The notes beneath the pieces were generated by a model. The model was not told the DNA's origin. It saw only the letters and a list, made by a program, of their open reading frames with translations, and ran no database searches. A stretch of DNA of 12,971 nucleotides, taken from assembly GCA_031425655.1 (NCBI GenBank), contig JANPJS010000148.1:1-12971 (forward strand), given 5' to 3'. Source of the stretch: Abditibacteriaceae bacterium. GTDB taxonomy: Bacteria; Armatimonadota; Abditibacteriia; Abditibacteriales; Abditibacteriaceae. Each line of letters starts with the position of its first letter. Position 1 is the stretch's first letter. This document shows, in pieces, positions 1 through 11,464 of this stretch. Both the position numbers and the translations under genes were made by a program.

Positions 1-38
1 TGACCTGCCCCCAAATTCTGATCCAGTTTTAAGGTTAG
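1..38. repeat. IS right terminal inverted repeat (IRR)
   Basis: Inverted match to 1207-1245. The orfB stop codon (35-37) lies inside it. Confidence 0.93.
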
Positions 39-919
39 TCTTTTTCTTTGTCTGACTCGGCTTGGGCGTTTAGGAAGGCCTGCCGAAACTCGGCGGGTGT
101 TTGATAGCCCAAACTCGAATGGGGACGCTCTTCATTGTAATAGCGCTGGTAGCGTGCCAGAAGCACCCGCGCTTCAGCCCGGTTTTTAAACCACTCCCGG
201 CTTAAGCATTCGTCGCGGAGCTTGCCGTTGAAACTCTCGGCGATTCCATTTTGCCACGGACTACCCGGTTCGATGTAGTGCGTTTGCACCTGCTGCTCAT
301 GCAGCCAGTTTTTGACCGCCTCGGCAATGAACTCCGGCCCGTTGTCACTGCGGATGCCTGAGGGGGCACCACGTTCGGCAAATACCCGGCTCAATACGAC
401 CACAACGGCTGAGGCCGTCATCGAACCACCCACTTCCAAGGCTAAACTTTCGCGAGTGAATTCGTCTTCCAGAGTGAGTATTTTGAGTTTCGCACCATTA
501 GCGCACTCGTCATGGACGAAGTCGTAGCACCAAATGTGGTTGGGACGCACCGCCCGTTCCCCGATCCGAGACACTTGAGAAGCCGGGTGCCGTTTCTTGG
601 GACGGCGGCGAGGCAAGCTCAAACCGGCTGTCTTCCACGCTCGTTGCACACGCTTGTGGTTGAGCGGCTTGCGTTCTTGGCCCTTCTCCTCCCGGTTAAG
701 CAATGCCCCAGCGCGACGGGAGCCAAATCGGGGATGCTCCAGAGCCAACCGACGCAAGCGCTCGGCCAGTGCCTGATCCCGCTCCTGCTTAGTTGGACTG
801 GGCGCATAACGCACGCTGGATCGGCTGAAGCCCAACGCTTGGCAGACACGCCGTTGAGAGAGGGGATGGTGCGCCGCCACCTGTTGCACCATCTCACGTC
901 GGGCAGCGGGGTTGGCTAC
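35..919 (-). CDS. IS3-family transposase OrfB (integrase-like DDE domain), probably expressed as an OrfAB fusion of about 382 aa
   Basis: Catalytic motifs WCYDF, IRSDNGPEF and NGIAESFNGKLRDECL, plus YNEERPHSSLGYQTP. The frame is open from the slippery site (…KKVANPAARREMVQQ…); the first ATG is at 892. Confidence 0.95.
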   Translation of the reverse strand, partial: VANPAARREMVQQVAAHHPLSQRRVCQALGFSRSSVRYAPSPTKQERDQALAERLRRLALEHPRFGSRRAGALLNREEKGQERKPLNHKRVQRAWKTAGLSLPRRRPKKRHPASQVSRIGERAVRPNHIWCYDFVHDECANGAKLKILTLEDEFTRESLALEVGGSMTASAVVVVLSRVFAERGAPSGIRSDNGPEFIAEAVKNWLHEQQVQTHYIEPGSPWQNGIAESFNGKLRDECLSREWFKNRAEARVLLARYQRYYNEERPHSSLGYQTPAEFRQAFLNAQAESDKEKD

Positions 920-925
920 TTTTTT
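874..925 (-). promoter_or_regulatory. Programmed -1 ribosomal frameshift signal: A_AAA_AAG plus a downstream stem
   Basis: Minus strand reads GGA AAA AAG TAG at the end of orfA (heptamer at 919-925). Nine nt downstream, CCGCUGCC (909-902) can pair with GGUGGCGG (881-874), giving 8 bp with 2 G-U pairs. orfB is in the -1 frame. Confidence 0.85.
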
Positions 926-1182
926 CCCAACACCTCCTTAAGAATGGCGTTGTCGAGCATAGTCTCAGCCACCAGCTTTTTGAGGCGGCTGTTCTCTTGT
1001 TCCAACTCACGCAGGCGCCGCGCCTCGTTGATTTGCAAGCCGCCATACTTCTGGCGCCACTTGTAGAAGCTGTTCTCACTGATCCCGTGCGCGCGGCACA
1101 GCTCAGCGATGGTTGTCTCGCCTTTTTCCGCCTGCTGTAACAGGCCGATAATCCGTTCCTCGCTCCACTGTCGGGTTTTCAT
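916..1182 (-). CDS. IS3-family transposase OrfA (HTH + leucine zipper), 88 aa
   Basis: MKTRQWSEERIIGLLQQAEKG…IAELCRAHGISENSFYKWRQKYGG…LRELEQENSRLKKLVAE. AAGGA RBS lies 8 nt upstream (1191-1195). Confidence 0.95.
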   Translation of the reverse strand: MKTRQWSEERIIGLLQQAEKGETTIAELCRAHGISENSFYKWRQKYGGLQINEARRLRELEQENSRLKKLVAETMLDNAILKEVLGKK

Positions 1183-4100
1183 CTCGTCGTTCCTTTGGCT
1201 GAGATTCTAACCTTTCAAATGGATCAGTTTTTGGGGTGCAGGTCATAGTGCATGTTAAAAGCATAAGAATTGACCATTCTAACCTCCAACGCTCCCTGCG
1301 CGCCACATCAAGAACATGGCTTAACTCGCTGCTGCTCGGCCAACCTTCGCACAAAGCAGCTATTTGTCCTTTACGAATCGAGTGCTTAAGATTATTAACT
1401 TCGCTGTCATCCTGTTGAAGCCGTTGTTGGTATTCTTCCCACTGTGTGCCCAGTATGCGATTTAGAACCTTCTTGTCTCCAGCGAAATGTTGACCAATCA
1501 GTTCTGCCGCGAGATAAGGTTGACCTAAATCCAACTCATCGAGACAAAAATCAAGTAACAATTCCCTTTCACCTACACGATTAAGAAAAAGCAAAACCTC
1601 ATCTCTGATAATCCCCAGTTCCTTTTTATTGCGAATGAATTTCAAAGCCTCGGCACGCGCGATGGGATAATCATCTATAAGTGGTAACGCCAAGTCCCAA
1701 AACTCATGTGCATCATTGCCAAGGGAAAGCAATTTGACCGGTGGATAACCTAACGAGTGCTCTATGTATTGCCAATTTGCGAGGATTAATTCTACGAATG
1801 GTGTGTTGTCATGAGTCCAAAAATAATGCTGATCCCGTGAATAGACCTGCAAGATATCCAGACGATTCATAGTAAGTATGCCGCTAAATGCTGCCATGCC
1901 CTTCTCATGTCCGTAAGGCATTCGCACAGCTAAGCCAGCAGATAATGATTGAATTGCATCTTCCTCTAAAGTGCTTCGCATCCGTTGGTGGTAACCGCAG
2001 GAAGCGATAGTCATGGTCGCTGCATCAGAATCGTAATCATATAATTTCAAAAGTTCCAAATCAAATGCATCATTACCACTACCATCACGCAAATGTGTGG
2101 CGATAACGCGCCGCAAGTTGGCTGAAATCGGAGTTGCTAAATTTAAAATTCGGCTGCGGATTTCGGGGTCTTTTTCGTAGGTTTTCGCGATGGCCGCAAA
2201 TTGACCGGCTGACTTTTGCAACATCTGTAAAGCCAATGGGCGCACACGTGGATCGAATGAGTAATCTATTACAAGGTGAGCTAAAGCTTCTTCATAGCGC
2301 TCATCGTGAAGCAACTTATCTGCACCAACTGAAAAAAGTAGATTCGTTACTTCCGTATCTTTAGGCAAAACGCCAAGTTTGTTAAGACCCACCAAAACGC
2401 CACTTTTGTGTCGGCATGATTCATCAGCTAATAACTCAACCAGTCGTTTACGACAAGCATCTTTATCGGCTATGATGTTTGGTAGATTATAGGCAATGTT
2501 ACCTGCTTTATCTGAAGGGCCGTAAGCCAAATTTGTCAGTAACTCTTTGACTTCTATATCATCCATTCCCCAACCATCAAGTAAGGCTTGGGCAGGGAGA
2601 TTGGGCCAATCTACTCGTGTTGCTTCGGTGGCGTTTTCAAGCAGTAAGGCTTTTCCTGTAGGGGTGCGGCCAATCAGAACAGCCTCGCCTAAGAAAATGC
2701 GGTGTTCGTAATCAGGTGCTTGAGTCAGCCATGCTTCGACTGCCTCGACCACAATCGGGTGATCTTTGAAGTTCTGATTTAAGAGTTCAAATTCTTTGCC
2801 GTGCAAATTAAAAAGCAGATTATCCAACGAGTAATTTTTTGTTTCTGTCTGACGTAAGCGGTGGCGAATTTGCCACGCTACGAATCGCGCTACAACATCA
2901 TCTTGTGAATAGTTTTTCAAAAGAACTGCACCTACTGTCTCAGCCAGATAGTGACCATCACTACTACCTAATTTTCTATGAAGAATGCGCCCGGCTAAAG
3001 CAAAACATTCCCGACGAAGTTCCAAAGAACCGGGCCATCCTTTAATTAATGCGTCGGCTATAGAGTCCCGGTATGACAGACTTAGTTCCTGCCAATACTT
3101 CCCGCTGTAGAGCAGTGCCTTCATATCAGCGGATGCTTGTCGTCCTTGAAGCACTTTGCCGATGTGCCCAAATATACGTAGGTCGTGAAAAAGAGAGGAA
3201 CAAGCTGAATCTACCGACTGTTCGGCTTTTGGATGATTGGGCCATCCTTCAAGCAAACCTTCTAATGCAGCAGTTCTCACCGAAGGATTGACTGCATTGA
3301 GAGAAAGTTCTGCTATTTGATCTCCACATTCTACATCGCCTTGGCAAAGAGCAGCATATGCTTTTGCCGCAGCGCGGCAGTAAGATGCTTCTTCATCGAA
3401 CATGGCACGCCAAAGAGATTGCTCTACATCCGGTTTTCGTTCCCATGTTCCCAAGTTTCTAAGCAGACCTTCCCACATTCCTTGACGCCGGGGAAACCAA
3501 CTGCGAACTTTTTCACTTGCTCGATCTTTTAGACGCGCTGACCGCAAGCCAAACAAAACACGCTCCATCATACGTTCGGCGTGGGGCGCGTAATGGGCAT
3601 ACTCTATGCGTTCAAAAGCTCGTTCTGCCAGTTGCTTGGCCAAATTAGCAGGACAGCCGAAGGGGCCAAACGCGACCTCACTCAGGAGTTCCGCGACATT
3701 ATATTCTGCGACATGATTGGCCGCACCTGCTTTATCCAAATTCTCCACCATGCGACGCACTTTGTCTGGCGCTGAAGTAAGGGAAAAGAGGGACAGAATG
3801 GTTTCGCGCCACTGGCGGTTCGCCCCTTGCTTTTCTAAAACTTCCAATTGTTCAATTTCTGGCAAAGTGTTTAGATGTTCAGCCGCTAAATATTCTTGAA
3901 ACACACGATGGAAAAATCCCACCTGTGTCGGCGATTTACGGGTTAAAAGTCCAGTGTTTTGGTCGCCAATAGTTATCAATGCATGGCTGAGTTGCTTAGC
4001 TTTTCGTATTTCCAGACCAAGCCTGTTTTCATCATGCAAAAAATCTTCAACTATGCCTTTAGCTGCTTCAATTTCGATGACACCCTGACTCTGTTCGCTT

Positions 4101-5818
4101 TGCACAGAAAAGGCAAGATAGGCAAAGATAGCTCGCAATTCATAATTTTCCAAGACACGAGATGAACTGCTTAATGCCGCTGCTTCGCGTCGTCTTTGTG
4201 GATGCGTCTCAATCATATACGTCACAGCATCGCGGTAGGCCGTAAAACGATCTGAGGGCAAACGCTTGTTTTGAATCCGAAAGGCAATCAAGAGGCACAA
4301 CAAAAGAGGCACTTTCGCCAAATCTCCTAAATCCACCAAGCGACGCACCTCACCTACAAAACTTGCTGTCATGGCTTCGACTTTTGCGGTTTGTGCTGTC
4401 TCATCTAAACCTCCAAACTCATGCTCTACATATCGCTTAAACCAGACTTTCGCTAACTGTTGTTGCTGAGATGGTGAAAAATCACAAAGAGTGCCGATTT
4501 GCCAGCCTTCCGAGGGCATGGACAATTGCTCAAAGCCATATGGACGACTGGTTAAAATAGTTGGCAGTTGTCGCTGTTCTATGAATAGTTGCAGTTTTCG
4601 CAATGCCTGTTTCGCAGCATCAGCATTATTCCATTCATCCAGTCCATCTACAATCAACAGCAAGCGTTCGTCTTCCAATGCTTGTTGAATCAGAGGCCAT
4701 AGACGTTCTTCTTCATTGCCCTTTAACCATGCCTTCAGGAGTTCAGACAACGAGCAATCGGCAGTTGATGTTTCGGCGAGTTTACGCGTCCAATATCCAA
4801 ACGGAACCCAAATAGGAAGATATTGCCCCCACTCCTGAGCCAAAGCAGTGATTTGTGGTGCTTCCTTCAACAAGTCCGTCACAACAAATCGGGCTAATGT
4901 GGATTTGCCAGAACCCGGATCGCCTAATATGACGCTACGCTTCTGGCTGCTTAACCATTGGGCAAACGGGCGGCGGGCTTGATAGGTTGTGCGGCGCGAC
5001 GGTTGGCGCAGATTATCCGATGATTTATCTCGCGCCGCATCCAATGAACTCTGTTGCTCTATCTGAGTATTCGGCCCAGTCCAAGTAGAAATGGATTCTT
5101 GAATATCGGGATGAACAAAGCGTTCCGCTAATGAAGGCGCACCCATGTTAGGGTCTGCGCCACCCGGTAAACCAGCATCGAGTTTGAATACGTTTTCGTA
5201 AAATGCGCCCAGTTTTACTCGCAAGACATGAATCGCTGGGCCGTCAAGCCTGTGGCGATTGCTCAGAGTATTCGCTGCCTCTTCTCCGCAAAACTCTTTT
5301 ACCCATGCGCGGCCAAAGAAATCGTCTACAACTTCCGGTAAATCTTTGAGTTTTTTATTGAGTGCAACGCTATCCCACTCGGTAAATTGAATGCCCGCTT
5401 TGGCTAATAAGCGCCGTTGAAAGATTACTTCATCGCTTCGTTGCTTGGATTGCAATTGCTCACGCGTGCAAAGCACAAATTCATTACTGCGAGAACGCCA
5501 ATTCCCTTTACGGAATAGTCGAACCGCAGCACGAATTTTCGCTGGCCCAAAATCTTGCACGTTCTTACATTGGTAGGTCTTATATTTCTCGCTGCCCCTA
5601 ATTCGAGCGAATATATCTATGCCTTGCTGGTCATCTCCCTGCACACCATATTGGCGCGCATCTTCTACTTGCGCCTCTAACAGAACCACGCGAAGGCACA
5701 ACTTTTCAAAGTCTTGCCAAGAAAGTTCTTCAAAAGGCAACTCGTGCTTTTTTGTCTCGACGGGCGGATTTACGGCTGAGGTTGGCGGCGTGTAAAGATT
5801 CGCGGGAACGTTGTTCAT
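1103..5818 (-). pseudogene. Restriction-endonuclease-like (Mrr/PD-(D/E)XK) - NACHT NTPase - HEAT-like repeat protein (NLR/Avs-like), 3'-truncated by the IS. 1524 native codons (5818-1247) plus 47 junction/IS-derived residues
   Basis: N-terminal nuclease motif FEKLC…QQGIDIF…YQCK (GID 5615-5623, QCK 5564-5572). Walker A GDPGSGKST (4898-4924) and Walker B LLLIVDGLDE (4634-4663). Also ILTSRP, PLLLCL and winged-helix FFHRVFQEYLAA. There is no stop before the IRL at 1245, and the frame ends at a stop inside orfA (1103). Confidence 0.88.
1207..1245. repeat. IS left terminal inverted repeat (IRL)
   Basis: Inverted match to 1-38, upstream of orfA. Confidence 0.93.
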
Positions 5819-6013
5819 AAAGCATCCAATGCATTTAATTATGAGTGGAGTAGGTGCTTATGGACACCGAGCATTTTGGACAGAGCGAGATCAACAGCAA
5901 AAATAACGTTCAATTTGGTGCCAAGTTGGGCGAAGACGCGATTTCACGGCGGACACGGTGTACAGTTTCAGTGTGAATGCACCTTTGCCAAACTAAAGCT
6001 ACGAGGGAATTTT

Positions 6014-6346: not shown

Positions 6347-6414
6347 CAGTTTTGAGTTTTGAGTTTTGAGTTGCTGGGTTGAACTCAAAACTCACAATTC
6401 AAAACTCAAAACTG
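6347..6414. repeat. Palindrome built from heptamer tandem repeats: (AGTTTTG)n … (CAAAACT)n
   Basis: Left arm 6347-6372 CAGTTTTGAGTTTTGAGTTTTGAGTT, 9-nt loop, right arm 6382-6414 AACTCAAAACTCACAATTCAAAACTCAAAACTG with one extra degenerate unit. Confidence 0.92.
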
Positions 6415-7976: not shown

Positions 7977-8119
7977 TGTCTCTCGCAAAGACGCAAAGAC
8001 GCAAAGAAGCTTTGAGCTTTAAGTGAAAAGAAGTGTCGTGGTTCGCTTACTCTGCTTTTACCCTCAATGCCGCTCTTAACTCAAAGCTTCTTTGCGACTT
8101 TGCGTCTTTGCGAGAGACA
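7977..8119. repeat. 143-bp MITE/REP-like inverted repeat with 40-bp arms containing the octamer CGCAAAGA x3
   Basis: 7977-8016 TGTCTCTCGCAAAGACGCAAAGACGCAAAGAAGCTTTGAG matches the revcomp of 8080-8119 at 39/40 positions, with a 63-nt spacer. Confidence 0.92.
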
Positions 8120-10947: not shown

Positions 10948-11416
10948 AAATTCCATGACTTCCGAATCTTTCCCCGAATCCGGCGACGGCCCTAAACGAA
11001 GCCGCGCCGCCGGCGCCGTGAAACCCGGCCCGGCGGCGCCTTCGCTTGTTTTCGACGTTGACATGAGTTTCGTCAGCGACGACGAAATCGCCCTTCTCAA
11101 CCGCGACTATCGCCACAAAAACAAGCCGACCGACGTGCTTTCTTTTGCCCAATGGGAAGGCGATTTCGCCTCCGATATGCCGCTTTTTCAGTCGCCCGCC
11201 GGTGAAGCGTTGGCGCTGGGCGATCTGGTCATTTCCATCGAAACCGCACAGCGTCAAGCCGCCGAACTTGGCCATAGTTTGTCGCAGGAAATCGAGTTTT
11301 TAGCCGCGCACGGCGCTTTGCATTTGCTTGGCTACGATCACATCCGCGACTCCGACCGCCGCGCGATGTGGCAATGGCAGGAGGCGATTACCGAAGGGAT
11401 GAGGGATGAGGGATGA
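10655..11416 (+). CDS. ybeY: rRNA maturation endoribonuclease YbeY. Start uncertain (ATG 10655, GTG 10745 or ATG 10841)
   Basis: MSFVSDDEIALLNRDYRHKNKPTDVLSF, LGDLVISIETA and the metal-binding HGALHLLGYDH (H3xH5xH). Confidence 0.93.
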   Translation: MNPKPDRTSKPAAKSEITNARPAKTAAPISVKTPRNAKANPQAKAKTSVSWSPAARRAAKNSMPAVTCRELSQTVRRAVKATLQSAPPRFPMLLAAVENSMTSESFPESGDGPKRSRAAGAVKPGPAAPSLVFDVDMSFVSDDEIALLNRDYRHKNKPTDVLSFAQWEGDFASDMPLFQSPAGEALALGDLVISIETAQRQAAELGHSLSQEIEFLAAHGALHLLGYDHIRDSDRRAMWQWQEAITEGMRDEG

Positions 11417-11464
11417 GGGCGGAAGTGCCCACTTTTCATCCCTCATCCCTCATCCCTCATCCCT
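11395..11464. repeat. Palindrome built from heptamer tandem repeats: (AGGGATG)3 … (TCATCCC)4
   Basis: Left arm 11395-11419 includes the ybeY TGA (11414-11416). Right arm 11436-11464 ends immediately before ATG 11465. Confidence 0.93.

Follow-up and report, generated by a model that had tools for sequence, protein, structure and literature searches.

The contig JANPJS010000148.1 of an Abditibacteriaceae bacterium (assembly GCA_031425655.1), the whole 12,971 nucleotides of which are here called the window, carries a minus-strand gene for a nuclease-NACHT-solenoid protein. This is likely a single-protein receptor against phage, of the Avs/bNACHT kind, cut here by an IS3-family insertion sequence (IS) that separates off its last 122 residues and probably inactivates it. 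The protein belongs to the bacterial NACHT proteins, its effector is Mrr-like, and its family is widespread and unnamed and of a known kind. It is a bacterial relative of the animal NLR immune receptors. The gene is read as a single open frame from an ATG at 5818 to a stop at 1105-1103, giving 1571 aa, but its native codons end at T1524 and the final 47 residues come from the IS; the native protein is estimated at ~1646 aa. No second lesion is visible across the 1524 native codons. The first-pass annotation had taken 1246-5818 as the whole gene and as a single-gene system. That interval stops at the left end of the IS3, the true last 122 codons lie on another contig of the assembly (C134), and the interruption had been missed; because the copy is interrupted, this allele would probably fail in a phage challenge on trivial grounds.

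The architecture first proposed, an Mrr-like nuclease followed by NACHT and a HEAT-like rather than TPR sensor, is borne out by motifs, profiles and models, which agree. The E…GID…QCK signature reported at the N-terminus is made up of E38, G66-I67-D68 and Q83-C84-K85. D68 and Q83 are invariant (69/69 aligned members); at position 85, 54 of these have K and 15 have R. Pfam Mrr_cat matches the window copy with an E of 0.006 and 17 bits against a cut-off of 21, and exceeds the cut-off in five of six relatives. In the model of residues 17-760 (predicted local distance difference test, pLDDT, 90.3), the E...D...QxK site of the head is predicted to lie on a restriction-endonuclease fold, the fold on which the proposed function had been made to depend. 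In the per-domain comparison the head matches 1y88 (Z 10.7, rmsd 2.5 over 111), MspJI (Z 9.8) and AspBHI (Z 9.6).

The Walker motifs and the NACHT winged helix are intact, as had been claimed. Walker A is GDPGSGKS (299-306) and Walker B is DGLDE (391-395), with K305, D391, G392, D394 and E395 present in all 69 aligned members and the winged-helix H637 in 68. Pfam NACHT matches with an E of 5e-11, and the closest folds to the ATPase are those of NOD2 (Z 19.9, rmsd 4.4, 419 residues) and NLRP3 (Z 19.7). Three of the features that define bacterial NACHT proteins were found: a Walker A with a D[GAS]hDE Walker B, a modelled NBD-HD1-winged-helix fold with its histidine, and the effector-NACHT-sensor order.

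The intact sensor of a relative, L012, is 927 aa long and 37% identical to the window's, so that the helical nature first described for the C-terminus stands and its length of roughly 800 aa does not. The L012 sensor is modelled (pLDDT 93.9) as a continuous, almost all-helical solenoid with a beta-hairpin and a helix at its end. Its nearest solved folds are the HEAT/ARM proteins Kap121, importin-beta and CAND1 (Z 10-12, TM<=0.24), and karyopherins are the top matches (Z 11.6-11.7); these matches to a predicted structure show the repeat type, not a close relative. Among Pfam matches on the sensors, HEAT_2 was found in L012 only, the window sensor having none at E<=0.05. PDB sequence searches with three profiles returned designed HEAT/ARM repeats and weak NLR matches, with no Avs chain listed, and the best ESM Atlas match (0.87) was among unnamed or generic HEAT clusters that serve as leads only. 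A complex prediction of the nuclease-NACHT part (700 aa) with the last 244 residues of the L012 sensor scored 0.00, which is evidence neither way.

The inserted element has the features of the IS3 family, including an orfA/orfB DDE transposase, TG...CA ends with inverted repeats and a short target duplication. It lies at 1245-1 of the window, after codon 1524 of the gene, and breaks the sensor at its position 801-803. C134 begins with an IS right end, followed by ACTA and then by 122 in-frame codons and a stop. Searched by tblastn with the last 250 residues of 54 relatives, C134 gave 41 matches, the best with 41% identity and an E of 3e-25; past this displaced tail are an SDR oxidoreductase and other metabolic genes. 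The genome contains 9 to 11 copies of the IS, with nine left ends and nine right ends in the assembly, and read depth in the probable source run is 135.8 for the IS against 12.5 for the gene. Apart from the window, the copies are found at the contig ends C16, C30, C82, C152, C169, C207, C228, C251, C63, C126, C133, C134, C135, C144, C213 and C248, and they are 100% identical over what is assembled. On the identity of these assembled ends, the element is a recent expansion. Another copy closes a 525-codon open frame on C169 (GC 46%), which looks like that of an exported protein.

Is the interruption an artefact of assembly from a collapsed repeat? The contig does end at the IS, and the assembler placed the sole full copy here. 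However, an independently assembled, unbranched contig of the probable source run spans 6200 to 1216, 30 bases into the IS, with no alternative letters and no loose end listed at 1246. In addition, after its IS right end C134 resumes with an identical 4 bp and then, in frame, with the missing codons, and matching 4 bp pair the left with a right flank for six of the nine IS left flanks. An artefact is therefore very improbable. As the junction contig is unbranched, no IS-free allele is seen, although contigs drop rare variants. Among the 40 blastn matches listed, which do not include any on the downstream side, none shows a duplication of the gene end bracketing the insert. Or, has the IS merely trimmed a dispensable end, leaving a read-through allele that still works or has a retuned sensor? 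The catalytic and ATPase motifs are all intact in an otherwise undamaged frame, and mean conservation of the tail is slightly below that of most of the sensor (0.31-0.33 vs 0.27-0.43 per 50 columns). On the other hand, 96 of 97 full-length members retain the tail, which has near-invariant residues (R838 and D842 in 94% each, D902 in 88%) and is ordered in the L012 model as five helices, the beta-hairpin and a final helix. A C-terminal helix is proposed to drive activation in Avs7 (PMC13581612). The lack of other lesions fits a multi-copy IS that is active and inserted recently. Fixation of an auto-active nuclease in a population is hard to imagine, and nearly all members retain the tail, so the truncated allele is probably null; a working one is unlikely, though not far-fetched.

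A word-seeded search returned 63 proteins. Besides that of the window there were 54 relatives, most of them 1600-1800 aa long, and 8 weak matches to NACHT only. In GTDB genomes a relative is encoded at 314 of 383 pattern matches. The best 80 of these loci come from many bacterial phyla and from the archaea ANME-1, Methanothrix and Methanoperedenaceae; nuclease and NACHT profiles score in all 80 and sensor profiles in 79, the exception ending at a contig end. Sixty-five of the 80 are intact, 11 are split or short and 4 are cut by a contig end. With a sensor-only profile, 818 clusters (50% identity) were found at E<=1e-30 among 1.84 billion representatives. The architecture was checked in 143 new proteins among the best 150 sensor-profile matches. 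All 97 full-length representatives (>=1550 aa) have both nuclease and NACHT, and 39 of the 143 lack the nuclease but begin inside NACHT or the sensor and are read as fragments. The family is rare in each lineage, the sensor being present in 2 of 401 genomes of the window's own phylum (its own included; 0/3 in the genus) and in 2 of 401 of a Pseudomonas-centred order. Three plasmid records match the family, and tblastn of a sensor against 50,697 phage records gave no match.

A FastTree phylogeny, the rows of which are family members and exclude characterised Avs/bNACHT proteins, places the window protein beside a pair of unnamed metagenomic proteins, within a clade that mixes Acidobacteriota, Ignavibacteriota, Chloroflexota and archaea. 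Such mixing of phyla fits horizontal spread, with no donor claimed. A well-supported subclade of Streptomycetaceae and Chloroflexota (L024, L031, L034, L035, L042, L045-L048, L050, L051, L055, L056, L058, L067, L072, L077, L078 and L091) has sensors that are mostly longer (~1000 aa) and more diverged, and its target may differ. Some members differ in arrangement. On a Deinococcus aetherius plasmid (L113:5851-10718) the nuclease (229 aa) and a NACHT-sensor part (1334 aa) are annotated as two genes, either a natural split or a broken gene. At L041:12422-14849 the 3' part of a broken member is on the opposite strand and overlaps another long open reading frame (ORF), through inversion or insertion. 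In Acidobacterium sp. S8 (L025:9956-15574) a member ends after 971 aa, and directly behind it lie the C-terminal half of GajA and a complete GajB, which looks like a deletion joining two defence genes.

The neighbours of the family were scanned with PADLOC (E<=1e-15), taking three ORFs on each side within 4 kb at 63 loci. ORFs were called by a simple heuristic, and 295 of 354 were scanned, the 59 from L077-L091 being left out; the controls were 138 ORFs on 17 stretches chosen arbitrarily from relatives in the window's phylum. A match was found for 33/295 neighbours and 5/138 controls (Fisher p 0.01), and at E<=1e-30 for 25 and 3 (p 0.011). Judged from these gene matches, the neighbours appear moderately enriched in defence genes; counted by ORF this holds, and counted by locus it does not. 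There is no recurring partner gene among the PADLOC matches at these loci, which fits a stand-alone system. A member stands in tandem with Avs2 at L064:5393-14869 (952 bits for the Avs2 neighbour) and with PD-lambda-4A/Avs8 at L043:5966-14815 (610 bits), and a second STAND-like gene is also nearby at L065 and L039. At L066:6925-19560 the member lies as cargo inside an Hma system, flanked by HmaB and HmaC and followed by an SspH-like gene. Other defence neighbours are type IIG/III restriction-modification (L031), JetC (L067) and ThsB (L075), and on a plasmid (L111) TIR and SLOG genes are found near a family member.

The receptor reading is favoured by the patchy distribution over many phyla and archaea, the low GC at a variable site and the defence neighbours. 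Several points weigh against it, or against the interruption as described. By locus, the enrichment is not significant (22/63 vs 3/17, p 0.24), and 41 of the 63 loci have no PADLOC neighbour at all. The controls are not taxon-matched to the relatives' genomes, related loci are not independent, and some matches on both sides are generic. The window copy itself is without a defence neighbour, having housekeeping genes on both sides (window and C134), and the literature search found no phage test for any family member. The link of the window contig (C148) to C134 is made by target duplication and homology and not by a read spanning the whole IS. In the truncated allele 85% of the sensor remains, which leaves room for residual activity.

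No PADLOC or NCBIfam model names the family. The window protein has no match to Avs (PADLOC 2.0) or Avs8/PD-lambda-4 at E<=0.1, and in 29 relatives the only matches to PADLOC Avs/PD-lambda-4 models are nuclease-level ones to Avs2 (~20 bits, in 3). The full-length hit to a modelled Avs or PD-lambda-4 that would have ended the first claim of novelty was thus absent, and no publication on the family was found with the relatives' accessions or, since 2023, with NACHT plus HEAT repeat antiphage nuclease. Avs4 (EcAvs4, PDB 8dgf) resembles it in having an Mrr-like nuclease, a STAND ATPase and a long helical sensor in one protein of ~1550-1650 aa, and 8dgf aligns to the N-terminal model with a Z of 9.6. 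However, the family ATPase is far closer to the NACHT of NOD2/NLRP3 (Z ~20), there is no PADLOC Avs4 match in 30 members, and the Avs3/Avs4 structures 8dgc/8dgf are not among the listed fold matches of the sensor model, which are headed by HEAT/ARM proteins. The sensor of Avs4 is TPR-type. Erebus EruA (NCBIfam NF058535), also a NACHT antiphage protein, is the best antiphage match in NCBIfam, but it scores 36.7 bits here and <=38.6 in 27 members where the cut-off is 1000, and the match covers NACHT only. Avs10 is Erebus/Hypnos/bNACHT64, with a C-terminal nuclease (E1263/K1265; PMC13581612). The low score and the N-terminal nuclease of the family set it apart from Avs10/EruA.

KpAvs2 shares the Mrr-family nuclease, the STAND module and a long C-terminal sensor, and protects by abortive infection (PMC11564622), but PADLOC Avs2 matches only the nuclease of the three relatives, against 952 bits for a genuine Avs2. 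bNACHT25 and bNACHT32 of E. coli (NACHT clade 6) are alike in the N-terminal PD-(D/E)xK/Mrr-like DNase, the true NACHT, the D[GAS]hDE Walker B with a winged-helix histidine and the single gene; they need the nuclease, and the histidine holds the off state (PMC12169576; bioRxiv 10.1101/2022.07.19.500537). By description, bNACHT25 appears to be set apart by an NCH1 end and a need for DnaJ, where the family has a HEAT/ARM-like solenoid of ~930 aa. Kibby et al. (bioRxiv 10.1101/2022.07.19.500537) include restriction-endonuclease effectors as well as HEAT sensors in their inventory of bacterial NACHT proteins. Avs7 and Avs11-24 (Lee et al. 2026, PMC13581612) have in common with the family a QxK-motif nuclease, a STAND ATPase and a large helical sensor, but their sensors, compared by description only, are mostly TPR-like. 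The subtype is uncharacterised, as first suggested, in every library searched, but its kind is well described by Kibby et al. and Lee et al. As the latter group 34,990 sensors into 684 structural clusters, with ~30 tested beyond Avs7, the family has very likely been catalogued there.

Avs7 at rest is closed and ADP-bound; its sensor then clamps a monomer of a phage protein, ADP is exchanged for ATP, tetramers form and DNA is cleaved (PMC13581612). By analogy with Avs7, bNACHT25 and KpAvs2, from which the following steps are inferred, the resting protein would most likely be ADP-bound and closed, with the nucleotide held by H637. The solenoid of ~930 aa would wrap a monomer of a conserved tailed-virus protein, upon which ADP would be exchanged for ATP and the NACHT domains would oligomerise. 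The nuclease heads would then converge and cut DNA non-specifically, and the infected cell would die. Since the family spans bacteria and archaea, the trigger is most likely, as a best guess, a core head or tail protein common to bacterial and archaeal tailed viruses.

Is the trigger perhaps already known, the family being among those tested by Lee et al. as Avs11-24? Avs12, for example, is triggered by the portal adaptor and Avs17 by the tail assembly chaperone (PMC13581612). With 818 clusters the family is large enough for their 90 prevalent clusters, it has members in the Enterobacterales (Enterobacter WP_063863497.1, Pantoea WP_158132222.1), a group that they favoured, and their nuclease mutants MsAvs12 Q81A-K83A and KpAvs17 Q96A-K98A are near the family's Q83, Q86 and Q90. 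However, only ~30 of the 684 clusters were tested, and the sensors are mostly described as TPR-like where this one is HEAT/ARM. There is no blastn match, at the DNA level, in 5,426 E. coli genomes, and no Moraxella, Klebsiella, Salmonella or Citrobacter among the named rows, most protein rows being nameless. Prior testing is thus an outside chance. Alternatively, the receptor might not bind a phage protein directly but guard a host protein or sense stress, as bNACHT25 does with DnaJ. A true NACHT with an N-terminal PD-(D/E)xK nuclease is what bNACHT25/32 have, by the published account, and HEAT solenoids are general protein binders. Yet the C-terminus of bNACHT25 is an NCH1 domain rather than a comparable solenoid, and long-sensor STANDs are mostly direct binders, in 12 of 14 families (PMC13581612). 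Guarding is thus a still less likely explanation than prior testing, and direct recognition of a phage protein is preferred.

A bolder and more tentative proposal is that this is an NLR-like family common to bacteria and methanogen-related archaea, that its importin-like HEAT solenoid sees a tailed-virus protein outside the known Avs1-21 targets, and that the IS has made a natural knockout of it here. Lee et al. leave the small terminase, the tail sheath, the minor tail protein and the baseplate hub as candidates (PMC13581612). A sensor of HEAT type that archaea have too could extend the viral patterns known to be sensed. Because it is common across phyla, fixed in architecture and present in culturable Proteobacteria, the family is a ready entry for toxicity screens with phage genes, by which the targets of bacterial NLR-like receptors are mapped. 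The broken window copy is itself of little weight; it mainly illustrates how a defence gene acquired not long ago is lost again to an insertion sequence that is active.

Table 1. Features of the interrupted gene and its surroundings (window coordinates)
Feature	Position	Strand	Basis
Nuclease-NACHT-HEAT-like sensor gene, native part (codons 1-1524)	1247..5818	-	GC 46%, GC3 41%; open frame, conserved motifs
Mrr-like PD-(D/E)xK nuclease domain, ~aa 17-185 (E38, D68, Q83, K85)	5264..5770	-	Pfam Mrr_cat, fold matches
NACHT module, ~aa 186-699 (Walker A K305, Walker B DGLDE 391-395, helical domain, winged helix with H637)	3722..5263	-	Pfam, fold, conservation
HEAT/ARM-like alpha-solenoid, predicted sensor, aa 700-1524, minus last 122 aa	1247..3721	-	L012 model, fold matches, HEAT_2 in L012
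Target-site duplication, 4 bp, ACTA; second copy after IS right end on C134	1246..1249	-	Flank comparison
47 read-through codons into IS and stop codon; outside native protein	1103..1246	-	Same stretch recurs at other IS ends
IS3-family insertion sequence, terminal inverted repeats; orfA 1182-916, orfB 892-35	1..1245	-	NCBIfam IS3 transposase 247 bits, cut-off 160
Intergenic region between gene and divergent HIT-yqeY-phoH-HD-ybeY-CNNM housekeeping cluster	5819..6013	.	Variable site in genus

The base composition of the gene (Table 1; GC3 is GC at third codon positions) compares with a GC of 57% for the genome and a GC3 of 72% for phoH. On its other flank in the window are the housekeeping genes HIT, yqeY, phoH, a 7TM-HD hydrolase, ybeY and a CNNM/CBS protein. 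Upstream of HIT two same-genus genomes hold unrelated genes, and a third same-genus contig stops too early; the gene is thus a lone acquisition at a variable site. A promoter scan placed no sigma-70-like site close upstream of the gene, and one sequencing run, the probable source, is listed as carrying the gene, with no RNA run among those listed.

A second, distant NACHT gene is present in the same genome (G000 C312:55484-56569; 25% identity over 388 aa). Intergenic inverted repeats built from short 7-8 base units are found in the window at 6347-6414, 7977-8119 and 11395-11464, the first of which recurs often genome-wide. The phoH of a same-genus genome (L115:2067-4378, G003) has an apparent homing-endonuclease intein after its GTGK motif, recognised by eye, as well as a frame break.

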